A stretch of DNA of 64,000 nt from positions 14,422 through 78,421 of the forward strand of contig JALNYN010000001.1 of the NCBI GenBank assembly GCA_023229825.1. The letters are read 5' to 3'. This document shows, in pieces, positions 4,945 to 64,000 of the stretch (position 1 is the first letter of the stretch; every line of letters starts with the position of its first letter). A program made the translations under genes and the position numbers. The stretch comes from Minisyncoccota bacterium. GTDB lineage: Bacteria; Patescibacteriota; Minisyncoccia; Phycocordibacterales; CAIJYI01. The notes under the pieces are model-generated. The model saw nothing but the letters and a program-made list of their open reading frames with translations, was not told the DNA's origin and did no database searches.

Positions 4945-5077
4945 AAAACCATCTTGTGAGTTAGCAGAGCTAATTTTGGCAGCGTAAGTTGCCAGACCAG
5001 CGATACTAATTTGGTTCGCAAAACACCCCTTCGGATTCGTCCGTCGGGGTTTTTGCGTTGTGGTGGAGGAGGCGGTT

Positions 5078-5123
5078 CCCCTAGGGCGGTCCTCGGGAGG
5101 TTTCCCGAGGACCGCCCTAGGGG
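5078..5123. repeat. REP1 perfect palindrome (CCCCTAGGGCGGTCCTCGGGA-GGTT-TCCCGAGGACCGCCCTAGGGG) upstream of the RAYT gene
   Basis: Same family at 5826-5873 and 14401-14449. Confidence 0.8.
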
Positions 5124-5138
5124 AAAACGGAGCAATCG

Positions 5139-5155
5139 TGTATAATGCTTGAATG
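5139..5155 (+). promoter_or_regulatory. extended -10 (TGTATAAT) 6 nt upstream of the ATG: candidate leaderless promoter for the RAYT gene
   Basis: tgtataatgcttgaATG; no SD possible. Confidence 0.45.
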
Positions 5156-5848
5156 GAACGAAAATTTAATTTTAGCGTTGATGAGTACTATCATATTTAT
5201 AGCCGTGGAGTTGAGAAGCGTGAAATTTTTCTTGATAATGGAGATAAAGAAAGATTTTTACGTTTATTGTTCTTATCTAACTCAGGCAAACCATTTAATT
5301 TTAGAGAAGTTTCCGGAATTTCTTTTGAAAATATTTCTCGAGGAGAACCACGAACAGCCATAGGAGCTTTTTGCCTTATGCCCAATCATTTTCATCTACT
5401 ATTACGAGAAACCGAGGAGGGCGGAATAAGTGCATTTATCGGAAAACTTCTCACTGGCTATTCAATGTATTTTAATAAAAAATACAAACGAAAGGGTGTA
5501 GTTTTTGAAAGCCGTTTTCAGGCTCAGCACGTCGATAACGACAATTACCTCAAATATCTCTTTGCTTATATCCATCTCAATCCGGTAAAACTCATCGAAC
5601 CGGAATGGAAAGAGAAGGGAATCAAAGATCAGAAATTTGCCGAAGACTATCTGAATAAATATCGCTACAGTAGCTATGAAGATCATATGGGCACAGAAAG
5701 AGAAGAAGCCCTTATCCTCGACAAAGAGTCTTTCCCAGAATATTTCGAAAGATCCCGTGATTTCAAAGACTATGTAACGGATTGGCTCAATTATCGCGAC
5801 GAAGAGGAAGGCGGTGGCGACACTGTTCCCGAGGGCGGTCCTCGGTAA
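5153..5848 (+). CDS. REP-associated tyrosine transposase (RAYT / IS200-like Y1 HUH transposase)
   Basis: HUH motif NHFHLLL and the Y..YIHLNPVK motif, matching E. coli RayT (HMHCIW; YIYINPVKHG); flanked by REP1 palindromes; paralog at 61945-62655. Confidence 0.85.
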   Translation: MERKFNFSVDEYYHIYSRGVEKREIFLDNGDKERFLRLLFLSNSGKPFNFREVSGISFENISRGEPRTAIGAFCLMPNHFHLLLRETEEGGISAFIGKLLTGYSMYFNKKYKRKGVVFESRFQAQHVDNDNYLKYLFAYIHLNPVKLIEPEWKEKGIKDQKFAEDYLNKYRYSSYEDHMGTEREEALILDKESFPEYFERSRDFKDYVTDWLNYRDEEEGGGDTVPEGGPR

Positions 5849-5873
5849 AATTACCGAGGACCGCCCTCGGGAA
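5826..5873. repeat. REP1 palindrome overlapping the RAYT stop codon (TTCCCGAGGGCGGTCCTCGG-TAAAATTA-CCGAGGACCGCCCTCGGGAA)
   Basis: Direct reading; encodes the C-terminal PEGGPR and the stop. Confidence 0.8.
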
Positions 5874-5950
5874 CTCTAACCAACTTCACGTCATTTTTGC
5901 ATCTCTGTATAGTTTCTTTCCATTTTCTTTTTTGCTAGGATGGTGGCATC

Positions 5951-14400: not shown

Positions 14401-14449
14401 GTCCCCTAGGGCGGTCCTCGGTATTTTGCCGAGGACCGCCCTAGGGGAC
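14401..14449. repeat. REP1 palindrome copy 3, followed by a T-run: doubles as the map terminator
   Basis: GTCCCCTAGGGCGGTCCTCGG-TATTTTG-CCGAGGACCGCCCTAGGGGAC then tttttg. Confidence 0.8.
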
Positions 14450-23413: not shown

Positions 23414-23833
23414 ATGATACGAAAACTGTATTCAATTTTCCTTCTCATTCTGATAACGGCCATTTGCGTCCTGAATTTTTATGCGTATCGTTTTCACTGG
23501 TACTGGGAGTTTTGGTGGTTTGATATCGTTATGCATACTCTCGGAGGCATGTGGGTGGCTTCCGCCGCTCTTTGGCTTCGATATTTTCGTAATAAAGACA
23601 GAGAGCAGGCAGTATTGCGTAAAAAATTCGTTTTATTTTTTTCCGTTTTTTCCGTTTATGTTATCGGCATCGGGTGGGAACTTTTTGAATTCAGTTTGGA
23701 TAGGTTCATAACTTTTAAAATTCACGATGCCGCCAATACCGCAAGCGATCTCTTTTTCGATGGAGTGGGCGGCCTTTTCGCTGTATTTCTTTTCTTCGCG
23801 GTGTATAATAAATATATGAAAATGGAAAATTGA
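23414..23833 (+). CDS. hypothetical multi-TM membrane protein
   Basis: 139-aa hydrophobic ORF. Confidence 0.5.
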   Translation: MIRKLYSIFLLILITAICVLNFYAYRFHWYWEFWWFDIVMHTLGGMWVASAALWLRYFRNKDREQAVLRKKFVLFFSVFSVYVIGIGWELFEFSLDRFITFKIHDAANTASDLFFDGVGGLFAVFLFFAVYNKYMKMEN

Positions 23834-23903
23834 AAATGGAAAAATAACGGATTTTCAATACTTATCTATTCTCTATTTTCAATTCTCAATTATCTAATAT
23901 TTT

Positions 23904-25265
23904 ATGAAAGCGAAACTTACATTTGCCGGAGGAACGGGCGGTCCGACGGGGGCCAATTTTTTGTTTGAAACATCGGATAAAAAAATACTCATCGACTGCG
24001 GTCTGACACAAGGAGACGAATCAGCGGAAGATCTGAATCGCGAAATGTTCCCATTCGATCCCGGGGCGATCGATATTCTTTTTGTCACCCATGCCCATAT
24101 TGATCATATCGGAAGAATTCCATTTCTTATAAAGAACGGATTTCGCGGAAAGATCTATTCCACTCCGCCGACTCGGGATCTCGCAGAGCCGATGCTTGAT
24201 GATACGCTGTCGCTCATGATCCACGAGGAGAGGAAAAAAGGAACGGAGCCGCTCTATGATGCGGTAGATATACGGCAAGCGCTTTCGCTTTGGACGGGAA
24301 TAGAATACCGAAAGGAAATTCCGGTTTCTGACGATCTCTCGGTCGTTTTCCATGATGCCGGTCATGTGCTCGGATCGGCAATGATCGAAGTTCGATATGG
24401 AAAAAAGAAAATGCTTTTTACCGGAGATCTGGGTAATTCTCCCTCATCGATACTTCGCGATACCGAATATGTCCCCGATATTGATTATGTGCTGATGGAG
24501 AGCGTGTATGGGGATCGCGAGCATGAACACAGAGATGAAAGGAGGGATCTGCTTGAAGATGTTGTAAAAGAATCGGTAAAAAAGAAAGGGGTTTTACTGA
24601 TCCCCGTTTTTTCTCTCGAAAGAACGCAGGATATTTTATTTGAGATCAATGAACTGGTGGAAAGCGGAAAAATTCCCGCCGTGCCGGTGTTTCTTGATTC
24701 TCCGCTCGGTATCAAGATAACGGAAATTTATAAGAAGAACAAAAAATATTTCAACGCAAGCGCGCAGGCGATCATTCAGGGAGGAGATGACATTTTTCAA
24801 TTTCCGAAACTTCATTTCACTGCGGATGTCGAGGATTCCAAAGCTATTCGCGGCGTTCATCCTCCAAAGATCATTTTGGCGGGTTCCGGCATGTCGAACG
24901 GAGGACGAATATTGCATCATGAAAAAGAGTATTTATCCGACCCGAAAACTACGCTGCTCTTCGTGGGTTATCAGGCGGTCGGGACCCCCGGAAGACTTTT
25001 GGAGAATGGAGAAAAGACCGTCCGTATCATGGGCGAAGAAATAAAAGTGCGCGCACACACCGCAACGATCCACGGCTACTCGGCTCATCGAGATATGAAT
25101 GGCTTGTTCGATTTTGTCGATCAAATGAGCGATACAGTGCAAAAAGTTTTCGTAGTGATGGGCGAACCGAAAGCGGCGACGTTTTTATCGCAAAGGATAC
25201 ATGATTATCTCGGTTTGGACGCGGTGGTGCCGAGATTGGGGGAAAGTATTGAGCTGGAATTTTAA
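23904..25265 (+). CDS. MBL-fold metallo-hydrolase with beta-CASP domain (RNase J / CPSF73-like RNA-processing nuclease)
   Basis: HAHIDHIG metal-binding motif, beta-CASP region, COG1236-like length. Confidence 0.8.
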   Translation: MKAKLTFAGGTGGPTGANFLFETSDKKILIDCGLTQGDESAEDLNREMFPFDPGAIDILFVTHAHIDHIGRIPFLIKNGFRGKIYSTPPTRDLAEPMLDDTLSLMIHEERKKGTEPLYDAVDIRQALSLWTGIEYRKEIPVSDDLSVVFHDAGHVLGSAMIEVRYGKKKMLFTGDLGNSPSSILRDTEYVPDIDYVLMESVYGDREHEHRDERRDLLEDVVKESVKKKGVLLIPVFSLERTQDILFEINELVESGKIPAVPVFLDSPLGIKITEIYKKNKKYFNASAQAIIQGGDDIFQFPKLHFTADVEDSKAIRGVHPPKIILAGSGMSNGGRILHHEKEYLSDPKTTLLFVGYQAVGTPGRLLENGEKTVRIMGEEIKVRAHTATIHGYSAHRDMNGLFDFVDQMSDTVQKVFVVMGEPKAATFLSQRIHDYLGLDAVVPRLGESIELEF

Positions 25266-25269
25266 ACGA

Positions 25270-25335
25270 GGTTTTAGGTGCTAGGTTTTAGGTGTTAGCT
25301 TGACGACGACAAGTAGTAAAATTAAAAGCTAACGG
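25270..25335. repeat. Family-C element, left arm (TTAGG heptamer-like repeats + ACGACGAC core + AAAAGCTAACGG)
   Basis: ggttttaggtgctaggttttaggtgttagcttgacgacgac...aaaagctaacgg; the right arm at 25758-25788 is its inverted complement. Confidence 0.7.
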
Positions 25336-25342
25336 CCGACAA

Positions 25343-25744
25343 TTGAATATTATGATAGAAACAAAACCAATTCATTCATATAGGGATTTGACTGTGTGGC
25401 AGCGCTCCATGCAATTAGTTCTTGTCATTTATCAAATTACAGAAAAGTTTCCCAAGGAAGAAATTTATGGCCTCACATCTCAAATGAGAAGATCCGCCGT
25501 GTCGATACCGTCGAATATTGCGGAAGGACGATTTAGAAATACAAGAAAAGATTTCGCACAGTTTCTGCGAATTGCGTATGGTTCTGGCGCTGAGCTTGAT
25601 ACACAGATAGAAATAGCAAGCCAATTACAAAAAACAAAAGACCTTGATTATCAAGAAGCGAGACAGTTACTTACTGAAGTATTAAAAATGCTAAACGCGC
25701 TGATCGCAAAAATATCCAAACCTGTTTCCGGTAGAAAACTTTGA
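25343..25744 (+). CDS. four-helix-bundle protein (23S rRNA-intervening-sequence protein family, PF05635)
   Basis: Hallmark TVWQRSMQLV..IY.IT.KFPKEE.YGLTSQMRRSAVSIPSNIAEG; sits between the inverted arms of a family-C element. Confidence 0.85.
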   Translation: MNIMIETKPIHSYRDLTVWQRSMQLVLVIYQITEKFPKEEIYGLTSQMRRSAVSIPSNIAEGRFRNTRKDFAQFLRIAYGSGAELDTQIEIASQLQKTKDLDYQEARQLLTEVLKMLNALIAKISKPVSGRKL

Positions 25745-25757
25745 TAGTTGCGTTAAA

Positions 25758-25788
25758 CTAACACCTAAAACCTAACAGCTAAAACCTC
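25758..25788. repeat. Family-C element, right arm (CTAACACCTAAAACCTAACAGCTAAAACC)
   Basis: Inverted complement of the left arm. Confidence 0.7.
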
Positions 25789-25796
25789 TTAAAAAC

Positions 25797-26429: not shown

Positions 26430-27866
26430 ATGAAAATAACGCATGACAAAACGATGCAAAAAGGCGGAGCAGACATCGCTCTTTTGGTCGCTTTTTGTCT
26501 GTTTTTTCTTTCTGCGCTCGGGTCATTCATCTATTTTTCGCTTTTCGGCGATCCTCCGATAAATGGAGACAAGATACTGGAGCAAACAATGACGGCATCT
26601 TCCGCGGTAAAATCGTACACGGCAGAGATTTTTATTCAGAACGAAGGCGTTGCTTCTTCGAGCGCGGTAGTAAATGGAACGGTCAGAGTCGATACCGCCA
26701 CGGGGGCTCACAATGGTTTATTTTCCTTTTCTCTCTCGCGTAATAATACTAATCCGAGACTGGAAGTGGAAACGCTAACGTTTCCCGAAGCATCGTACGC
26801 GAAGTTCATCCTGAATGACAAGATGAATAAAAGTCTTGCGGCGTATCCGCCGGACTGGGTAATAATAACGGCTTCTGAGGTCGGTCCGGAACAATATGCC
26901 GTTTTACAGCGATCGCTCGCAGTTGCAGATGTTCTTGAGTTGTTTCGAAAAGGCGGCAAATATCTCGCTATAGAGGGAACAGCCGAAAAACAGATCGGCG
27001 GAGTCGAACCGCAAATACATTTTGTCCTTCGTCCCTCAAAGATCGAATCAGATCGTCCTTCGGAAGTATCTGAAAATTTTGATACGCTCCTTCGGAAAGG
27101 CGAGGTTAATGTGTGGGTCGCCGCAAAGGATAAGAGCGTGCGCGAGGTGAGATATTCCGTCAATGGTTATTCGATAACCATGAGGATAAAAAATACATCC
27201 GCGCGCCCAAATATTGAGAGGCCGGAAGGTTCGATCACTCTCACTGAATGGAAGACAAAACAGTTTTCCGCATTCGCCCTGAAAGACCCCATATCGGAAA
27301 TTTTTATCGGCTCCTACGGCGCCATAAAAAAAGAATATCTGGAAGCGCTCAGTTCCGCGATAAAAAAACAAACGGGGATCAAAGCAACGGTTCTGATCCC
27401 GGGGTCGGAACTTCCGCAGACAATGCCGCTGTATAACGCGGAACGAAAGCAGTTCGATGCGGATACCGCTTATAACAGTGCGAAAGCGGCATCGCAGAAA
27501 TATGGGGCAAAAACGCGCTTCATTTATGTGTTGGACGTAAATATGTATTCTTCATTGCGGCCAAAACAGGTATCAGCATGGTTCATCGATGAATTGGGGT
27601 CGAATACGGTGCTCATGTCACTGTACGGACTTCGCAGAATATCCGACACGGATCCGAGTCCAGCCGATCAACCGCTCGTTATTTCGCGGGCTCAAAAGAT
27701 CGCTCTTCACGCTCTCGGAACGAGCGTCGGTTTCGGCCTCTCGCCATCAACCGAAAACCCGACCTGTCTTTCATATAAGACGGATTCTCTCGCGGAACTC
27801 GATAAGCAAGGAACCGCGTACTGCGCACCGGAGAGTTCGACCACTAAAGCGTTCTTCAAAAAATAG
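26430..27866 (+). CDS. hypothetical membrane-anchored protein (N-terminal TM, large extracytoplasmic domain)
   Basis: 478-aa ORF, coding-like composition, no recognised motif. Confidence 0.6.
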   Translation: MKITHDKTMQKGGADIALLVAFCLFFLSALGSFIYFSLFGDPPINGDKILEQTMTASSAVKSYTAEIFIQNEGVASSSAVVNGTVRVDTATGAHNGLFSFSLSRNNTNPRLEVETLTFPEASYAKFILNDKMNKSLAAYPPDWVIITASEVGPEQYAVLQRSLAVADVLELFRKGGKYLAIEGTAEKQIGGVEPQIHFVLRPSKIESDRPSEVSENFDTLLRKGEVNVWVAAKDKSVREVRYSVNGYSITMRIKNTSARPNIERPEGSITLTEWKTKQFSAFALKDPISEIFIGSYGAIKKEYLEALSSAIKKQTGIKATVLIPGSELPQTMPLYNAERKQFDADTAYNSAKAASQKYGAKTRFIYVLDVNMYSSLRPKQVSAWFIDELGSNTVLMSLYGLRRISDTDPSPADQPLVISRAQKIALHALGTSVGFGLSPSTENPTCLSYKTDSLAELDKQGTAYCAPESSTTKAFFKK

Positions 27867-27950
27867 ATACTAATATACGAATGAGTACCAATATACGAAT
27901 GGATACGAATACGACCGGCAACGAAGAAGAGATGGAACATTGCTCGGATC

Positions 27951-28070
27951 GCCGGACCGGGGTTGTACTCCGGTCCGAAACGTTTGGACGATTCACTGGT
28001 TTTTTCTATTAATACAAATTCGAAGATGAATTCCAAACGTCATGAACGGGAGTACAACTCCCGTCCGGCG
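27951..28070. repeat. Family-A inverted pair (CCGGGGTTGTACTCCGG-TCCGAAACGTTTGG ... CCAAACGTCATGAACGGGAGTACAACTCCCGTCCGGCG)
   Basis: Conserved loop GTACAAC with different stem sequences in different copies. Confidence 0.6.
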
Positions 28071-28221
28071 AAGAATCTGCGAGTATTTTCCAACGATTGT
28101 GACGGTCAAAAATATAATACCATTTCTTGACGGTAAAAGTGAGAAAATAGACGCCGGCATTTAATTCTTTTGATATTCTCGGGGAGGGCATGAGCGAATG
28201 ATAACTGAGTTCTGTGAAAAG

Positions 28222-28268
28222 TTCAAACGTTTCGGACGGGGTCGGAGACCCCCGTCCGGCAGCCCGAC
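28222..28268. repeat. Family-A unit (CAAACGTTTCGGACGGGGTCGGAGACCCCCGTCCGGC)
   Basis: Reverse complement of the copies at 21-76 and 467-506. Confidence 0.6.
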
Positions 28269-28305
28269 AGCAGTTGCAGAAGAAGATGCGATAGAAGAAT
28301 ATTGC

Positions 28306-28340
28306 AAAAATCCTCCGATGTTGTCGGAGGATTTTTTTTT
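28306..28340 (-). terminator. rho-independent (bidirectional) terminator of the infC-rpmI-rplT operon
   Basis: AAAAATCCTCCGATGTTGTCGGAGGATTTTTTTTT. Confidence 0.8.
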
Positions 28341-28342
28341 GT

Positions 28343-28705
28343 TTATTTGGCAGCTGCTTCTTCCATAACTTTCGCGAATACTTCGGGATGGAATTCTGCG
28401 AGTTCGGCGAGCATCTTTCGGTTGAGGTCGATGTTCTTTTTCTTGAGGGCGCCCATGAGTTTGCTATAGGAGGGGATAGCGGCGTTTTCGAGCGCTCGTA
28501 CTCCGGCATTGATCTTAACATTCCACAATCGGCGGTAATCGCCTTTTTTGTCGCGGCGGTGAGCGAAAGCATGTGATCCGGCGTGCACAATAGCTTCAAA
28601 AGCCTGCTTTTCTTTAGTGCTGCGTCCAAAACGATATCCCTTGGTTTGGGCTAGCGTATTCTTTCGTGATTTATTGGCGGTGGTGCCTCGTTTAACTCTT
28701 GTCAT
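28343..28705 (-). CDS. rplT: 50S ribosomal protein L20
   Basis: MTRVKRG...HRRDKKGDYRRLWNVKINAG signature. Confidence 0.95.
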   Translation of the reverse strand: MTRVKRGTTANKSRKNTLAQTKGYRFGRSTKEKQAFEAIVHAGSHAFAHRRDKKGDYRRLWNVKINAGVRALENAAIPSYSKLMGALKKKNIDLNRKMLAELAEFHPEVFAKVMEEAAAK

Positions 28706-28735: not shown

Positions 28736-28924
28736 TTATTTCGCGTTTATTAAAAATCTGCTTTTTGCTTTGTTGGTCATCGTGAAGGTCGATGTCTTTC
28801 GCTTGCTCAACTGCTTTACGCGCTGTTCTCGGGAATTGAAGTGATTCAGTCCGCCTTTGCGTCCGAGTACTTTTCCTTTTTTGGTCACGCGCAACCGTTT
28901 CGTAAATGATTTGTTCGTTTTCAT
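28736..28924 (-). CDS. rpmI: 50S ribosomal protein L35
   Basis: MKTNKSFTKRLRVTKKGKV..; conserved infC-rpmI-rplT order. Confidence 0.9.
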   Translation of the reverse strand: MKTNKSFTKRLRVTKKGKVLGRKGGLNHFNSREQRVKQLSKRKTSTFTMTNKAKSRFLINAK

Positions 28925-29015
28925 AGTAATTTAGGTTTTAGGTGTTAGGTGTTAGGTGTTAGGTTACGACGATCGTCGCCGGAAACTAAAAGCTAACACC
29001 TAAAACCTAACACCT
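28925..29015. repeat. Family-C element, intact compact copy (TTAGG arm - ACGACGATCGTCG core - CCTAA arm) in the rpmI-infC spacer
   Basis: ggttttaggtgttaggtgttaggtgttaggttacgacgatcgtcgccggaaactaaaagctaacacctaaaacctaacacc. Confidence 0.75.
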
Positions 29016-29021
29016 CGTTAA

Positions 29022-29534
29022 TTATTTCTTATTCGTTCTTTCTATTACAATGGTCAGACCTTTCGGACCTTTTTTCGGACCGTCGATCACTTTATATTCT
29101 TCGGAAATGAAATGAAGCAGTCTTTCCATTCTTTCTTTGAGGAAGGACTCATTCAGATACTTCGCGCGGCCTTTGAGGAAAAGGTTGATCTTCACGCGGT
29201 GGCCTTCTTTAAGCCAAGTTGACGCGTTTTTCGCCTTAAGCTCAAGATCGTGCTCTCCGGTGCCGATCGTGACCTGCAAACTCTTGAGCTCCGTGGTATG
29301 GGCGTTCTGTTTGGTTGCTTTTTCCTTTTTGCTCTTCTCGTAGACGAATTTACCATAATCTAGGATTTTTGCAACAGGCGGGACAGCATTCGGGGAAATC
29401 TCCACCAGATCGAGTCCGGCTTGTTCTGCTCGCGCCATCGCATCTTCCCGGGAAATAACTCCCAGAGGAGATCCATCGGGTGCAATAACCCGAAGCTGCG
29501 GCGCGCGTATTTGTCCATTTATTCGTTCGTACAA
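29022..29534 (-). CDS. infC: translation initiation factor IF-3 (start uncertain; probably a non-ATG start such as TTG at 29534 or nearby ATA/ATT; the ATG at 29663 gives an unconserved 45-aa extension)
   Basis: INGQIRAPQLRVI..GVISREDA...; IF-3 commonly uses atypical start codons. Confidence 0.8.
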   Translation of the reverse strand: MYERINGQIRAPQLRVIAPDGSPLGVISREDAMARAEQAGLDLVEISPNAVPPVAKILDYGKFVYEKSKKEKATKQNAHTTELKSLQVTIGTGEHDLELKAKNASTWLKEGHRVKINLFLKGRAKYLNESFLKERMERLLHFISEEYKVIDGPKKGPKGLTIVIERTNKK

Positions 29535-35699: not shown

Positions 35700-35788
35700 A
35701 GAAGTTAGGTTTAGAACAATAGAGCAACGGAACGATAGAACAGTTTTTTGTTCTGTTCCATTGTTCACTTGTTCTATTGTTTGGGGAT

Positions 35789-36214
35789 TTAATTATTTTT
35801 ATCCAACCAATAATTCGTTGCCGCTTTGGCGATCAGTCCGGCGATAATTGCTATTATAATAACGGGATCAACAAAAGCTTCTTTTCCTTGCGCTACGTTT
35901 TGCGCGAGCTCAAAAGCGACGCCGGTTGCAAGCACGGCGAGTATAACCCAAAGCGCGTTTCGTTCCGCGATGGCTTCGTGTAATGAGTCGCGTTCATCCT
36001 TCGGAACATGGATCATAATATCCGCCATGTCTACAGAAAAAATAACGAACCATACGACAATTGCGCCGAGTATGATCTCGTTCACCTGCGTCAACGACAT
36101 AACAACAAGAGGGGATATCATGATCAAGGTATACACCCATCCTTGCCATGTCGCCGGCATAAGTCCCCAGCCGGCATATTTTCGTCTTTTGAACCACTCT
36201 TTTTTTCCTATCAC
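35789..36214 (-). CDS. membrane protein (DUF2975/DUF2178-like, typically co-operonic with a small XRE regulator)
   Basis: Four TM segments; gene order mirrors yoaS-yozG-type pairs. Confidence 0.55.
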
Positions 36215-54007: not shown

Positions 54008-54073
54008 CATCTCCACAAATCTAAAAAACAGTCCGCTTGTTGGCGGACTGTTTTTTAGATTTGTGGAGATGGG
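54008..54073. terminator. long inverted repeat / bidirectional terminator abutting the tmRNA 3' end (a 29-bp stem that includes an inverted copy of the tmRNA 3'-terminal 15 nt)
   Basis: CATCTCCACAAATCTAAAAAACAGTCCGC-TTGTT-GGCGGACTGTTTTTTAGATTTGTGGAGATG. Confidence 0.6.
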
Positions 54074-54449
54074 GGGAATTGAACCCCCGTGCAAAAAGGA
54101 ACTCTTGGTGCCGGTACAAACATAGTTTATTTTTTTTGGTTTAAACCTTATAAGTTTGAAATAAACAAAATCTTATAAGCGTCGAGCTTCCTTTGTTTTG
54201 AAAATGTGCCGAAGCGCTCACATTTTCTATCCTGATGATATTACACCTTTTCTTTCTTATCAGGACTCAAAAAGAAAAGATGCCGTTTACGCTAAAGCGT
54301 AGCTCGGAGCGAAGTACGGAGATAAGACCGCACCTGCTTTTTTAGATAAGTTTGCACTTATGCAGTTTCTCGCGCATTTTAACGGGTGAGCGAGAATATC
54401 CGGTTTGAGCATTCAAGAGAGCGGCTTATTGTCTAGGCCGATCATCCCC
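54062..54449 (-). ncRNA. ssrA: tmRNA (ssrA)
   Basis: 5' GGGGAUG pairs with 3' CAUCUCC, including a G3:U70 wobble; T-arm GGGGGTTCAATTCCCCC; tag ORF ending ...YALA-TAA (stop at 54287-54289); adjacent to smpB. Confidence 0.7.
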
Positions 54450-59911: not shown

Positions 59912-60123
59912 ATTGCCAATGTCCCTTGACTATTTCCGCCGGTTTGCTATGATGTTTATCACTTGTCGATACCGCACTTATGCATATTTTTTGTATGCGG
60001 AATTGCGACGGCATCTTTATTATCGAAACCATTTATTAGAAAAATAACGTTTATTATTAACGGCCGTGGCTCAGTTGATCACTCTTAAGAGCTGAGCTTT
60101 GGCCGGTAAATAAAAAAAATAAT

Positions 60124-61320
60124 ATGGCAGCAGAAGAATTCAAGCGGGATAAACCGCACGTAAATGTAGGTACTATCGGACACGTCGACCACGGCAAGAC
60201 CACTCTTACCGCGGCTATTCTCCATGTTCTCGACATGGCGGGAAAGACGGTTAAATTGAAAAGCGTTGACCAGATCGACTCAGCGCCGGAGGAAAAAGCT
60301 CGCGGAATTACGATCGCGCTTTCTCACAATGAATATTCGACCGATGCTCGCCATTATGCGCACATCGACGCTCCCGGACATGCTGACTATATTAAGAACA
60401 TGATCACCGGAGCCGCTCAGATGGACGGTGCGATCCTCGTGGTTGCCGCCCCGGACGGAGCTATGCCTCAGACTCGCGAACACATCTTGCTCGCGCGACA
60501 GGTTGGAGTACCGAAAATGATGGTATTCTTGAACAAATGCGATCTCGTTGATGATCCGGATCTGATCGAGCTCGTCGAAGAAGAAATTCGCGAACTTTTG
60601 ACCAAACAAGGATTTGACGGCGCGAACGCTCCTATTATCCGCGGTTCTGCGACCAAAGCTCTCGCTTCGAAAGATCTCAACGATCCTGACGCGAAAGCGA
60701 TCTTGGCGCTCTGCGATGCGATGGACACCTATATCCCGGTCCCTGAGAGAAAGACCGATCTTCCGTTCCTTATGCCGGTTGAAGACATCTTCACCATTGA
60801 AGGACGCGGAACTGTCGCCACAGGACGTATCGAACGCGGTACGGTCAAAGTCGGAGAAGAAATCGAGATCGTCGGACTCAAACCGACCGTTAAGACGACC
60901 ATCACCGGTATCGAAATGTTCAACAAATCTCTCAAGGAAGGATTTGCCGGAGACAATGCCGGAGTTCTGCTCCGCGGAGTCAAGAAGGAAGACGTTACTC
61001 GCGGACAAGTACTCGCGAAACCGGGTTCCGTTACTCCTCACACCGAATTCACCGGAGAGGTTTACATTCTCTCGAAAGAAGAAGGAGGACGCCACACACC
61101 GTTCTTCACCGGATACAAACCGCAATTCTATATTCGCACCACTGACGTTACCGGAGAAGTTACCTTGAACGAAGGAGTGGAAATGGTTATGCCGGGAGAT
61201 ACTGTCACTTTCAAAGTTAAGCTTATCATGCCGGTCGCGCTCGAAGAGAAGATGCGTTTCGCGGTCCGCGAAGGAGGACGAACCGTAGGATCAGGGGTTG
61301 TAACCTCGATCATTGCGTAA
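60124..61320 (+). CDS. tuf: elongation factor Tu
   Basis: [22 protein letters not shown] motifs; full length. Confidence 0.97.
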
Positions 61321-61322
61321 AA

Positions 61323-61406
61323 AGCTTTTAGCTTTTAGCTGTTAGCTTATAGACGTATCGTCGTCCGTACCCTAAAACCTAAAACCTAAAACCTAAAACC
61401 TAAAAA
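61323..61406. repeat. Family-C element in the tuf-rpsJ spacer (AGCTTTTAG arm - GACGTATCGTCG core - (CCTAAAA)x5 arm)
   Basis: agcttttagcttttagctgttagcttatagacgtatcgtcgtccgtaccctaaaacctaaaacctaaaacctaaaacctaaaa. Confidence 0.7.
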
Positions 61407-61407
61407 G

Positions 61408-61833
61408 ATGCCTACAAAAACCACGACAACTAAACCGGCGGCCAAAGCGGTAAAACCGAAAGCGGCAGCACCTAAGGCTCCCGTGAAAGCGGTAAAAGCG
61501 GCGGTCGCGAAACCGAAAGGCGACGAGTTTCAGAAGCTTCGTATTCGCGTTCGCGCGTACGAGCACAAGATCCTCGATGCTTCGGTAAAGCAGATCATCG
61601 ACACGGCAGTTCGCTATGATGCGAAAGTGCTTGGCCCGATACCTCTACCTGCTGAGATCAAGAAATACACGGTCAACCGATCAACATTCGTTCACAAAGA
61701 TGCAAGGGAACAGTTTGAGATCCGCACGCACAAGCGCCTGATCGACATTCTGAACCCCAGCCCGAAAGTGATCGAGGCTCTCACGAACCTCTCGCTTCCG
61801 TCCGGAGTGAATATCGATGTTAAAATGATCTAA
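61408..61833 (+). CDS. rpsJ: 30S ribosomal protein S10 with a Lys/Ala-rich N-terminal extension
   Basis: QKLRIRVRAYEHKILDAS...; conserved tuf-rpsJ order. Confidence 0.9.
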   Translation: MPTKTTTTKPAAKAVKPKAAAPKAPVKAVKAAVAKPKGDEFQKLRIRVRAYEHKILDASVKQIIDTAVRYDAKVLGPIPLPAEIKKYTVNRSTFVHKDAREQFEIRTHKRLIDILNPSPKVIEALTNLSLPSGVNIDVKMI

Positions 61834-61897
61834 TTATAATATCAAAGGTTACAAAAACACACGGCAAAAGACGTGTGTTTTTGTCGGTTCATTCCAT

Positions 61898-61913
61898 GAA
61901 GGACGGTCCTTGG
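61898..61913. repeat. REP2 palindrome (GAAGGACGGTCCTTGG) upstream of RAYT2; further copies at 62110-62130 (inside the ORF) and 62661-62682 (downstream)
   Basis: Core CGGTCCT shared with REP1 (GGGCGGTCCTCGG). Confidence 0.65.
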
Positions 61914-61944
61914 TTTATATTTTAGGCATGGTATACTCATATTT

Positions 61945-62655
61945 ATGAAACGCCATTTTGCCTTTGCTCCCGATGAATATTATCACGTTTACAACAGAGG
62001 GACGGAAAGACGTGTTATTTTTGAAGATGATCATGATTATAAAAGATTTCTCGTACTTTTATACCTAAGCAACGGCACCGCTGCGATTGACCTAAACGAA
62101 TATTTTTCTCAGGAAGGACGGTCCTTCCTTGAACTCTTTAGGGCTAACCGCGGGTCGCAAATTGTGGATGTGGGATCGTATTGCCTTATGCCTAATCATT
62201 TTCATTTACTGCTTCGAGAAAAAGTAGACGGAGGCGTCAGTACTTTTATGAAAAAACTTGGGACAGCTTATTCCACATATTTTAATAAAAAAAATACGCG
62301 GGTCGGACCGTTGTTCCAAGGTCGCTTTAAAGCGCAGCATGTTGATATTGACAATTATTTAAAATATCTGTTTTCATATATTCATTTGAACCCTGTAAAA
62401 CTCATTGATCCAAAATGGAAGGAGAAGGGGATTTTTGACATGAAAAAGACTAAAGAATATTTGAACGAATACCCATACTCAAGTTATCAGAACTTTCTCG
62501 GGAGGAAACAAATTGAAAAGGTGATACTAACCAGAAACCGCTTTCCTGAATACTTTAAAACAACGCATGACTTTGAAGAGTTTATAAATGATTGGCTGAC
62601 GTTTGACGATGAGTTTGATGTCCGTAGACCGTCAGGAAAGAGAAAAAGACTGTAA
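61945..62655 (+). CDS. REP-associated tyrosine transposase (RAYT), paralog 2
   Basis: CLMPNHFHLLLRE and YLFSYIHLNPVKL; flanked by REP2 palindromes; one REP2 copy lies in-frame within the ORF (encodes QEGRSFLE). Confidence 0.85.
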   Translation: MKRHFAFAPDEYYHVYNRGTERRVIFEDDHDYKRFLVLLYLSNGTAAIDLNEYFSQEGRSFLELFRANRGSQIVDVGSYCLMPNHFHLLLREKVDGGVSTFMKKLGTAYSTYFNKKNTRVGPLFQGRFKAQHVDIDNYLKYLFSYIHLNPVKLIDPKWKEKGIFDMKKTKEYLNEYPYSSYQNFLGRKQIEKVILTRNRFPEYFKTTHDFEEFINDWLTFDDEFDVRRPSGKRKRL

Positions 62656-62835
62656 AATGACAAGGAAGGACCGTCCTTCCTGTAAAAGTTTGACAATACC
62701 TATTTGTTTGTTAGTATCAAAACCAGATTGCTGTGATGGTTGCGGATAGTTCGCAACCGTTTGAACAGCAACGGGAACCTTGTAAAACCCGCCGTCGCTC
62801 TCGACGAGCTATGGCGAGGCAAAGGAGAAACTGTC

Positions 62836-63522
62836 ATGAATAAGACGACTAAAGTTGTCACAGACGGTACAAAAATGAGCAATGAGCAGCTTGGCTTGCT
62901 GACTCGCCGCCATGATGAAATTAAACGAAGGATCAATGAAGGGGCAATTCATTTTGATGAAGTTGCAAAAGGATACCAGGCCATCACCGAAGGAGGAAGA
63001 ATTATTCAGCCGATCGTGATGCCGATGTTTACCGTTACCGCAACTGGAAAAGCACTGAAATATTCCCTTGGTCAACTTCGAAAAAAATGGTGTGTGGTTA
63101 GTGCCGGAACGGAACGATACGATTCGCTGGATCCTCCGCTTCAAAAAGGAAAAATACTTCTTCTTGGAATTATTCATTGTGATGAATTTCATCCCGATGA
63201 GCTCGAAACATCTATTATCAGGAAAGAAGCTCATCGAAGAGGATGGATCTCTCCACCGGCAGAAGTCGCTTGTCTCCTGCGCGAAAAATTTTCTACAGAG
63301 GATATTAATTCATTTGGTCTTACGCGGCTTGCTATAATGCATGAGCCATATCCTGACAAAACACCATATCTTGATCCTACGGATAGGAAGTCATGGGTTT
63401 GGACGCTTTGCGGACATGATACTCCTATCGGCGCGCTCCACGGAATACGATGCATGAGCTGGAATTATTTCAGCGAGGATCGGTACGGATTTGTGTTTCA
63501 AATCCCAAACTTCATCGGTTAA
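62836..63522 (+). CDS. hypothetical protein
   Basis: Strong SD aaggagaaactgtcATG; 228 aa. Confidence 0.55.
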   Translation: MNKTTKVVTDGTKMSNEQLGLLTRRHDEIKRRINEGAIHFDEVAKGYQAITEGGRIIQPIVMPMFTVTATGKALKYSLGQLRKKWCVVSAGTERYDSLDPPLQKGKILLLGIIHCDEFHPDELETSIIRKEAHRRGWISPPAEVACLLREKFSTEDINSFGLTRLAIMHEPYPDKTPYLDPTDRKSWVWTLCGHDTPIGALHGIRCMSWNYFSEDRYGFVFQIPNFIG

Positions 63523-63642
63523 TATAAAATAGAAAATATTTACTCCCGCTTTGGCTTCAACCGAGGCGGGTTTTTAAAAAATTGACGATATTTTTTTAAT
63601 ATGTTTTACTCTAAAGAGATATAATTATTTGCGGAGGTTAAA

Positions 63643-63885
63643 ATGGGTTTGAGTCAATTCTGCGGTTTTGTTCTTATTCTTTGCGTGGTTTCACTCTTGA
63701 TAGTCCTTGCGATCGGGGCCGGTGCTTTGCTGCTGAAAAATTTTTTTCGATTTTTAATTTGGATAGGACGGGGAACATCGGAAAAAGCGAAAATATTTGT
63801 TCGTGATCAGTTGCCGGAATGTTGCCGGTTTCATCGACATCATTGCGAGCGTCATTGCCCTCACAACAAAAGAAAAACAGAGTAA
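63643..63885 (+). CDS. small membrane protein with Cys/His-rich C-terminal tail (CCRFHRHHCERHCPH)
   Basis: RBS ggaggttaaaATG; terminator at 63886-63917. Confidence 0.4.
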   Translation: MGLSQFCGFVLILCVVSLLIVLAIGAGALLLKNFFRFLIWIGRGTSEKAKIFVRDQLPECCRFHRHHCERHCPHNKRKTE

Positions 63886-64000
63886 AAAAAAGTCTCGGCA
63901 ACCGTCGAGACTTTTTATATTATACCGCTTTGTTTTTTTGCTCGCTTTTTATCCTCTCTGAACGGACGAGGAAAAATGTCCCTACCCATGAACCGAGAAC

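Follow-up and report, generated by a model that had tools for sequence, protein, structure and literature searches.

Some intervening sequences (IVSs) of 23S rRNA genes carry an open reading frame (ORF) for a four-helix-bundle (4HB) protein of the S23p family (23S_rRNA_IVP, PF05635), placed in the loop of a long stem. What kind of element, then, brackets a gene of the same family between two protein-coding genes, and how is it related to gene-less hairpins in nearby ribosomal-protein operons? The question is raised by a 64,000-nucleotide stretch of DNA (hereafter the window) from a Minisyncoccota bacterium (assembly GCA_023229825.1, contig JALNYN010000001.1, positions 14,422 to 78,421), in which a cassette at 25261-25795 consists of a 4HB gene enclosed by inverted arms of tandem 7-base repeats (heptamers). 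A first-pass annotation had described this cassette as one copy of a mobile, IVS-like 'family C' element carrying the gene as cargo. Comparison with other 4HB loci leads to a different view of the arms: they are a distinguishing feature of the 4HB genes themselves, and nearly every locus has its own heptamer unit.

A heptamer-armed cassette in a protein-coding operon

The cassette is made up of the following parts, listed with the evidence for each:

25261-25305, + strand: 5' arm of the cassette (inverted repeat, TRF period 7/14, sequence)
25302-25331, + strand: half core GACGACGAC and one unit of the 3'-arm type, AAAAGCTAAC (sequence comparison; local mini-hairpin fold)
25352-25744, + strand: 4HB protein gene, 23S rRNA IVS protein family, 130 aa (PF05635, TIGR02436, PDB 2GSC, dN/dS)
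25751-25795, + strand: 3' arm of the cassette (sequence, TRF, inverted repeat, fold)

The two arms, of 45 nt each and 84% complementary, are separated by 445 nt, and their units follow the consensus (T/G)(T/G)TTAG(G/C), with a period of 7/14 detected by TRF at 25269-25298 and 25755-25787. On the 5' side, the stop codon of the upstream beta-CASP RNase gene (TAA, 25263-25265) is followed by the junction ACGAGG and then by the units TTTTAGG TGCTAGG TTTTAGG TGTTAGC. On the 3' side, the units CTAACAC CTAAAAC CTAACAG CTAAAAC are followed by CTC, and one base separates the end of the arm from the ATG (25797) of the downstream SLOG gene. The 4HB ORF runs from an ATG at 25352, with an in-frame TTG at 25343, to a stop codon at 25742-25744. 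The + strand gene order is thus beta-CASP RNase, 4HB, SLOG and a 478-aa protein, a series ended by a terminator-like site at 28306-28346. The minimum-free-energy fold of the whole cassette pairs the two arms (z = -5.1), bearing out the earlier proposal that split inverted-repeat arms place the 4HB gene in the loop of an IVS-like stem.

The arms are sharply delimited within the window. The motif YTAGSTKYTAGS has 17 matches in 64 kb against 0.10 expected, all confined to the cassette and two gene-less hairpins located in the infC-rpmI and tuf-rpsJ spacers. A strict lag-7 array detector, which has a minimum of 4 units so that its array-length distribution lacks shorter arrays, finds 8 arrays in the window, all of them paired, yielding four hairpins: the cassette, the infC-rpmI and tuf-rpsJ hairpins and a further one at 23814-23902. 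This fourth hairpin (23810-23902) is built of an unrelated unit, GAAAATG, facing its approximate complement in 34-nt arms that are 79% complementary, and the window contains no 4HB gene with a heptamer of the GAAAATG type. It fills the spacer directly upstream of the beta-CASP gene, which is therefore bracketed by two different heptamer hairpins. The cassette is not located in an rRNA gene: Rfam identifies only transfer-messenger RNA (tmRNA) in the window, the neighbours of the 4HB gene are the beta-CASP RNase and SLOG genes, and rRNA probes gave zero matches among 82 related loci.

The encoded protein matches PF05635 (23S_rRNA_IVP, E=1.7e-39) and TIGR02436 ('four helix bundle protein', E=3.7e-39), and its closest solved structure is that of XCC0516 (PDB 2GSC, E=4e-28), deposited as five chains. 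Structures of the family (PDB 2GSC, 2RLD) were solved years ago. Comparison with orthologues gives dN/dS values of 0.05-0.18 at dS > 1.4, indicating strong purifying selection on the protein and saturation of synonymous sites. The family is large, with at least 8,000 relatives at E < 1e-5 among the matches listed. It is related to Avd, an accessory protein of diversity-generating retroelements that binds nucleic acid. The window protein shares the four-helix-bundle superfamily with Avd but scores far under the family cut-offs (PF22296 bAvd, 26.5 bits against a cut-off of 40; NF033474, 28 bits against 80), and no reverse-transcriptase domain was found in the five neighbouring ORFs scanned. A link to defence systems was also considered and dropped, the protein having no PADLOC match. 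A conserved GxxRxxxSxxxNxxE helix face has been described for the family (PMC3936711).

Heptamer arms across the 4HB family

The relatives comprised 80 metagenomic loci encoding 4HB homologues (46-67% identity) and two orthologous loci (L001 and L002), of which 75 were usable. The upstream flank of each locus was compared with the reverse complement of its downstream flank, and the threshold was set at the 95th percentile of a cross-locus control. By this measure 49 of the 75 loci have flanking inverted repeats, whose unit changes from locus to locus (GTTCACA, TAGGGAC, AGGCACA, TAGTGGT and AGTAGTT are examples). Strict heptamer arrays are present at 49% of 4HB gene ends, compared to 9.5% of control gene ends in the same loci, and at both ends of 24/68 4HB genes compared to 6/243 controls, amounting to enrichments of about 5-fold and about 14-fold, respectively. 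Period 7 accounts for 30 upstream and 34 downstream flanks (of 75 each) and period 8 for 6 and 12, while other periods almost never occur. A period-8 hairpin resembling this minority class is also found in the window at 35700-35790, with TAGAACAA facing TTGTTCTA-like units. The arrays are inverted in 49 loci and direct in 7, and arms typically contain 4-6 units (median 5.4, with lengths truncated at the detector minimum of 4). Contrary to the first-pass annotation, the arms of the window cassette thus belong to the 4HB family, and not to a 'family C' that merely carries the gene.

The association extends to adjacent paralogues and to distant lineages. One relative (L072:3352-10019) contains four adjacent 4HB genes, each with its own pair of arrays, of GCTGCGA, GGGTCTG, TTAGGGA and CGGTGCA types; the closest pair among the three of these paralogues compared has ~58% protein identity. 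Among named genomes, heptamer arrays flank 4HB genes in Anabaena, Nostoc punctiforme, Picosynechococcus and Riemerella, and are direct in Pseudanabaena and Gemmatirosa. The cassettes lie in very different contexts (cas6/cas4, cmr2/cmr3, beside housekeeping genes, and within 23S rRNA), and several 4HB genes of the named genomes are wedged between cas genes, a position noted previously without mention of repeats (PMC3936711). Packing is tight, with a median of 55 nt from the upstream gene to the 4HB start and 37.5 nt from the 4HB stop to the downstream gene. The most enriched trinucleotide is TAG, found in 43% of consensus units against 23% expected, whereas TAA and TGA are not enriched.

Heptamer arrays also occur far from the 4HB gene. 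These distal arrays carry the heptamers of the local cassette in 38% of cases, compared to 0.4% for the arms of other loci, and 61/90 of them have no inverted partner within 150 nt. In one relative (L031:700-8950), eight solo heptamer unit types are found in 9 kb, and other related genomes likewise carry many solo arrays, reminiscent of the cyanobacterial short tandemly repeated repetitive (STRR) sequences and the Beggiatoa TAACTGA repeats.

Several other candidate regularities were tried and set aside. Closure of all three reading frames by stop codons, as the main cause of period 7, was dropped because it is enriched (51/75 against 31 expected upstream) but not universal, and because TAG alone, not TAA or TGA, is enriched. 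The G-rich arm is 5' in 37/45 loci, which is uninformative on gene orientation because reverse complementing leaves an inverted repeat unchanged. The cassette points the same way as its two neighbours in 84% and 72% of cases, which is no excess over the adjacent-gene background of 79%, and arrays show no preferred orientation with respect to neighbouring start and stop codons. A protein-heptamer 'code' is not apparent, as two cassettes have a heptamer type in common only when their proteins are more than about 65% identical, and no further signal emerges. Arm mismatches as a wobble test for selection at the RNA level (sense-strand G.U 50, A.C 45) support neither side.

Gene-less hairpins in ribosomal-protein operons

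Two gene-less heptamer hairpins accompany the cassette:

28926-29016, - strand: gene-less heptamer hairpin in the infC-rpmI spacer, with apex ACGACGATCGTCG (fold, lag-7 arrays)
61319-61410, + strand: gene-less heptamer hairpin in the tuf-rpsJ spacer (fold, lag-7 arrays, relatives)

Each occupies its spacer. The infC-rpmI spacer is bordered, on the - strand, by the infC stop codon (29022-29024) and the rpmI start codon (28922-28924), and the tuf-rpsJ spacer by the tuf stop codon (61318-61320) and the rpsJ ATG (61408). The infC-rpmI hairpin folds with z = -5.1 on the + strand and -6.6 on the transcribed - strand. The tuf-rpsJ hairpin folds more weakly (z about -2.5) because its TTTTAGC units face CCTAAAA units, creating a C.C mismatch every 7 bp.

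The earlier suggestion that the stems could act as attenuators found no support, as no terminator-like stem with a U-run is present at 25261-25795, 28926-29016 or 61319-61410. An Rfam search of the hairpins, including the L20 and S10/L4 leaders, gave nothing at gathering score, and the matches at E<=1 are only sub-threshold ones resembling miRNA-precursor hairpins. No terminator, attenuator or known RNA family was thus recognized at the hairpins.

The gene-less hairpins are related to the cassette, as had been claimed, through common heptamers (6-mer sharing of 0.38-0.73), an apical CGACGA/TCGTCG motif and an upstream junction. This junction, ACGAG(G/C) or (A/T)GAGG, is found at the cassette in the window's own genome (W) and L001, at the infC-rpmI hairpin in W, L002 and L084, and at the tuf-rpsJ hairpin in L175 and L177. 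The more detailed architecture proposed earlier is only partly retained: AAAAGCTAAC is shared by the cassette and the infC-rpmI copy and is missing from the tuf-rpsJ copy, and of the palindromic core there remains a common apex, limited to the short CGACGA/TCGTCG motif. The piece at 25302-25331 resembles the apical part of the gene-less hairpins and is missing from the orthologous cassettes of L001 and L002; among the cassettes compared, that of W alone holds a half apex and one right-arm unit before the ATG. Judged by its sequence, this piece looks like the product of an exchange with a gene-less copy. Variant units are likewise distributed by genome. TCAG units are found in both the cassette arms and the infC-rpmI hairpin of L002, with one in the L001 cassette arm and none in W or L084, while TATAG units are found at both sites of L084 and in no other genome compared. 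Such sharing of variants within a genome is concerted evolution, in which the copies either exchange sequence or co-evolve with a common reader. The gene-less hairpins would most simply be the cassette module minus its gene, that is, deletion derivatives comparable to ORF-less rRNA IVSs.

Conservation, gain and loss

Named relatives for the infC-rpmI comparison were gathered by a scan with initiation factor 3, and the tree of their beta-CASP proteins is (L001,(W,(L084,(L002,(L086,L087))))). The two sites are occupied as follows:

W: infC-rpmI hairpin present; cassette after beta-CASP present
L001: infC-rpmI region outside the locus; cassette after beta-CASP present
L002: infC-rpmI hairpin present; cassette after beta-CASP present
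L084: infC-rpmI hairpin present; beta-CASP junction empty, with a 66%-identical armed 4HB gene ~0.8 kb upstream of beta-CASP
L086: infC-rpmI hairpin absent (24-28 nt spacer); cassette absent
L087: infC-rpmI hairpin absent (24-28 nt spacer); solo right arm at the cassette site
Outgroups L088-L098: no such infC-rpmI hairpin; 4HB match absent from the locus

In L001 and L002 the cassette directly follows the beta-CASP gene, has heptamer arms and encodes 4HB proteins that are 80% identical. Because L086 and L087, known only as 9-16 kb pieces, are nested within the hairpin-bearing group, and because L087 keeps a remnant, their absences are best read as losses, in which the cassette gene and the gene-less hairpin disappeared together. 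The tuf-rpsJ hairpin was compared in five distinct relatives (L173-L178) reached through S10 homologues, and is present in all five, with co-varying arms. In L173 the units have been replaced by TTGATAG/CTATCAA in both arms, with the fold preserved (z = -6.7), and RNAalifold detects compensatory changes at 6/22 pairs of the tuf-rpsJ hairpin. Relatives lacking the hairpin were found for the infC-rpmI spacer, where the absences are read as losses, and none were found among the five compared for the tuf-rpsJ spacer.

The cassette and both hairpins keep the same positions in relatives with dS > 1.4, and the TTAG core is kept at all three sites despite the saturated dS. No target-site duplication is visible when filled (W, L002, L084) and empty (L086, L087) infC-rpmI spacers are compared, and the three copies counted in the 64 kb are not near-identical, having 38-73% of 6-mers in common. 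The window copies are old residents, not recent insertions of the miniature inverted-repeat transposable element (MITE) type, to which the first-pass annotation had likened the gene-less ones: their positions are orthologous at dS > 1.4, the absences are losses, and target-site duplications and near-identity are both lacking. Mobility as such is retained, since the diversity of contexts across bacteria implies many relocations of the cassette over longer periods, but not as recent movement of these copies.

Relation to rRNA intervening sequences and other known systems

The tie to 23S rRNA IVSs proposed in the first-pass annotation is strengthened by an example from Azospirillum lipoferum 4B. 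On its plasmid AZO_p2 (L171, 13786-15330), a 23S rRNA gene (Rfam LSU, 910 bits) is interrupted by a 4HB gene with arms CAGAGGA CGGATGA CAGAGGA CGGAGGA facing TCCGTCC TCTGTCT TCTGTCA TCCGTCT. The PLSDB gene table, which has no entries for RNA genes, leaves this 4HB gene unannotated. This element is a textbook IVS sharing the arm design of the window cassette. The Coxiella IVS is similar, having a 28-bp terminal stem and 3-4 tandem GACAGAT repeats upstream of the S23p ORF, with a repeat number that differs among strains and RNase III cutting at the start of the first repeat (PMC4990558). In the candidate phyla radiation (CPR), 23S_rRNA_IVP ORFs have been recorded in 16S and 23S insertions (PMC11270868). 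The window is itself of CPR origin, an identical protein being listed under Candidatus Paceibacterota. The heptamer arms common to the Azospirillum and Coxiella IVSs indicate that the window element is an IVS-type cassette in an mRNA operon.

ORF-containing 23S IVSs (Coxiella burnetii, Leptospira, Brucella, Xanthomonas, Azospirillum) share with the window cassette the PF05635/S23p family, the position of the gene in the loop of a long stem, and a heptamer stem within the host transcript (GACAGAT in Coxiella; CAGAGGA/CGGAGGA in Azospirillum). By contrast, the host transcript in the window is a protein-coding operon, the gene-less copies lie in mRNA spacers, and strong purifying selection acts on the protein, in contrast to the Coxiella ORF, reported to be decaying and probably untranslated. 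ORF-less 23S IVSs (Salmonella, Yersinia, Campylobacter) resemble the gene-less hairpins in being ~100-nt stem-loops in highly expressed transcripts, but are located in rRNA helices 25 and 45, while the window hairpins lie between stop and start codons. These ORF-less IVSs are sporadic among relatives and are cut by RNase III.

Likenesses to other repeat systems are more limited. The cyanobacterial STRR and Beggiatoaceae TAACTGA repeats are, like the window arrays, intergenic tandem 7-mers that are lineage-specific and often located upstream of start codons (PMC4679880). They are described as direct and unlinked to a gene family, whereas 4HB arrays are mostly inverted and tied to the 4HB gene. 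MITEs and the repetitive extragenic palindromes (REP) with their REP-associated tyrosine transposases (RAYT) likewise combine several short intergenic inverted repeats with a gene-bearing partner, but the window arms are tandem heptamers and not unique palindromes, the cassette has no transposase, and its copies are not near-identical, lack target-site duplications and are long conserved in position. HutP and TRAP are ring-shaped proteins that bind repeated UAG/GAG triplets in RNA. As an analogy only, they read UAG units at fixed spacing (UAG-N4, a period of 7, for HutP), one per subunit, in competition with a hairpin; the window protein is not homologous to them and is a putative nucleic-acid binder only.

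Proposed mechanism and competing explanations

To our knowledge, the sole experimentally established role of such arms is in rRNA IVSs, where base pairing between them in the primary transcript forms the stem that RNase III cuts. By analogy, we somewhat favour the reading of the window element as an IVS-type cassette outside rRNA, in which a heptamer stem around the 4HB gene is co-transcribed and cut by RNase III. Upon transcription of the operon, the two arms would pair into a stem of ~40 bp, which would loop out the inserted 4HB gene and juxtapose the upstream stop codon and the downstream start codon at its base; RNase III would then cut the stem and cleave the transcript at this point. The gene-less hairpins would be the ORF-less equivalents, long retained as intercistronic stems in ribosomal-protein operons. 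The anatomy of the cassette, the family-wide heptamer arms, the 23S IVS-like architecture, the positional conservation, the arm covariation, the losses and the purifying selection are direct observations, while transcription through the arms, the stem in vivo, RNase III cleavage and the origin of the gene-less copies by deletion are inferred.

Several observations fit this reading poorly. Arm mismatches show no excess of G.U (50) over A.C (45), unlike the prediction for selection at the RNA level, and the window tuf-rpsJ stem has a conserved C.C mismatch per unit and a weak fold. A pure requirement for a stem leaves unexplained the tandem repeats and their constant period of 7, the TAG enrichment (43% against 23%) and the retention of the TTAG core at all three sites at dS > 1.4. 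A few cassettes (7 loci) are flanked by direct and not inverted arrays, 61/90 distal arrays lack an inverted partner within 150 nt, and the Coxiella protein is presumed unexpressed, whereas the window protein is strongly constrained. No RNase III gene or signature was found in the 64-kb window, which is uninformative for the rest of the genome. Taken together, the period, TAG, the TTAG core, the mismatch pattern and the direct and solo arrays suggest that the heptamers themselves are read.

The main, though tentative, alternative is accordingly that the 4HB protein, as a ring-like oligomer (a pentamer in PDB 2GSC), binds tandem heptamers in RNA or DNA, with about one unit per subunit. The arrays at its own gene would then provide autoregulation, the gene-less hairpins and solo arrays would be further targets, and binding would compete with the stem, tuning the processing or translation of infC-rpmI and tuf-rpsJ. 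A conserved protein geometry acting on variable sequences would give a period fixed at 7 with the sequence left free, and this proposal is also consistent with the specific enrichment of TAG over stop codons in general, the arms of commonly 4-6 units (median 5.4), and the association of the heptamers with the 4HB gene as the only consistent one. Further points in its favour are the separate heptamer pair of each of the four adjacent L072 paralogues, the match of distal arrays to local cassette heptamers (38% against 0.4%), the lineage variants at both sites of one genome (TCAG in L002, TATAG in L084), the retention of the TTAG core despite saturated dS alongside a protein dN/dS of 0.05-0.18, and the lack of the infC-rpmI hairpin in the two genomes (L086, L087) that lack the cassette at its usual site. 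The nucleic-acid binding of the Avd relative points the same way, as does the conserved GxxRxxxSxxxNxxE helix face (PMC3936711). Against it, the binding itself is proposed by analogy with HutP and TRAP; heptamer type follows protein similarity only at identities above about 65%, and the most similar proteins are not those of cassettes with convergent heptamers; descent and gene conversion could equally yield heptamer sharing within a genome; the co-loss is based on two closely related genomes represented by 9-16 kb pieces; array lengths are bounded below by the detector (minimum 4 units); and the presence of the module in rRNA genes is left unexplained. The wider generalization, that S23p/23S-rRNA-IVS proteins are sequence-specific readers of tandem heptamers, with a paralogue per type and with arrays and hairpins as their cis sites, among them those of the infC-rpmI and tuf-rpsJ spacers and perhaps the cyanobacterial STRR repeats, is more doubtful.

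The terminal inverted repeats and the range of contexts (cas6/cas4, cmr2/cmr3, housekeeping, 23S rRNA; PMC3936711) could also reflect a mobile element acting at the DNA level, with heptamer arrays as its termini and gene-less hairpins as non-autonomous, MITE-like copies, moved either by the 4HB protein or by another enzyme, such as the IS200-like Y1 transposases of the window acting on DNA hairpins. The variable presence in close relatives, with a 66%-identical armed 4HB gene at a different nearby site in L084, would agree with this, as would the missing G.U excess, which fits complementarity at the DNA level, and the two Y1_Tnp genes in the window, one of them 0.5 kb from the tuf-rpsJ hairpin. 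Yet the positions of all three copies are kept in relatives with dS > 1.4, the missing copies are placed as losses by the nested position of the genomes and by a solo-arm remnant, filled and empty sites differ by no visible target-site duplication, the copies within the genome are not near-identical, no transposase consistently adjoins them, and the Y1 genes bear their own, different GC-rich palindromes. The mobile-element explanation is thus rather unlikely overall, while conceivable over long time scales, and a transposon or MITE reading is not supported for these particular copies. Ribosomal-protein autoregulatory leaders of model bacteria lie at positions such as those of the gene-less hairpins, which are conserved in relatives and might therefore be host-evolved intercistronic regulators (L20- or L4/S10-type leaders, attenuators or terminators) resembling the cassette arms by chance. 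This is improbable: Rfam gives only generic, sub-threshold matches to miRNA-type hairpins, no hairpin has a terminator-like stem with a U-run, the cassette and both sites have heptamers, apex motif and junction in common, L086, L087 and all outgroups do without the infC-rpmI hairpin, and the same-genome heptamer variants argue against independence from the cassette. That the arms are mutually unrelated, low-complexity repeats arisen by chance has in its favour their simple-sequence look and nothing more, and is refuted by the 17 motif matches at three sites only (0.1 expected), the 8 arrays per 64 kb, all paired, the fold z values down to -6.6, the conservation in relatives and the family-wide enrichment, which leave it virtually no probability. 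The IVS-type cassette cut by RNase III, the heptamer-reading protein and the mobile element are not mutually exclusive.

Other repeats in the window

IS200-like Y1_Tnp genes are present at 5153-5848 and 61945-62655 (E about 1e-8), the second within the S10 operon, directly after rpsJ. The first is flanked by GC-rich perfect palindromes of the CCCTAGGGCGGTCCTCGGGA type (5076-5125 and 5825-5874, with another at 14401-14449), and the second by GC-rich perfect palindromes of the AAGGACGGTCCTT type (61892-61924 and 62653-62685), an arrangement of genes and own palindromes that looks like REP/RAYT. A contig from another sample (L164) is 98.4% identical to 60054-64000 over 3.95 kb, from tuf to the Y1_Tnp region; upstream of tuf it has no blastn match to the window, although both contain smpB and ftsH, which suggests a mosaic or recombination boundary near 60054.

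A dispersed motif, GTCCGAAACGTTT, occurs in six exact copies (43, 483, 949, 12847, 27973 and 28225) and, with up to 2 mismatches, in 12 against 4 expected, often within larger palindromes (27949-28071, 28214-28260). One copy lies in the 79-nt loop between inverted AGTATCA-type arms (400-534; 28 nt, 89% complementary), and a similar sequence, GGACCCGTCCGAAC, is found in the infC-rpmI spacer of a relative (L091). The 475-nt non-coding stretch from the 478-aa gene to rplT (27862-28340) contains an 18-nt tandem repeat (27862-27911), long palindromes and a - strand ORF fragment (about 28009-28200) whose peptide GVYFLTFTVKKWYYIFDRHNRWKIL resembles the N-terminus of Y1 transposases, so that the stretch may represent a decayed element. 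A perfect 29-nt inverted repeat (54008-54071) adjoins and partly overlaps the 3' end of the tmRNA gene (54061-54449, - strand).

Implications

On heptamers beside 4HB genes, the Coxiella report alone was found in the literature searched; no account of such arms as a family-wide signature, or of their occurrence outside rRNA, was found there, although one may exist elsewhere. The 4HB gene has a recognizable cis signature almost wherever it is located, consisting of tandem 7-base repeats that are usually inverted, and this signature spans rRNA, CRISPR-cas and housekeeping operons in CPR bacteria, cyanobacteria, Bacteroidota and Proteobacteria. It brings rRNA IVSs together with the scattered 'four helix bundle protein' genes in a single class of cassette, supplies a concrete candidate ligand for a very large family with solved structures, and may help to explain the heptamer repeats found in cyanobacteria and in sulfur bacteria. 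In the Minisyncoccota bacterium, two core translation operons, infC-rpmI-rplT and tuf-S10, contain long-retained structured spacers, and the infC-rpmI and tuf-rpsJ stems probably shape the processing or translation of their mRNAs. If 4HB proteins do read the heptamers, the cassettes, hairpins and arrays would constitute a widespread protein-repeat system acting on transcripts or DNA.

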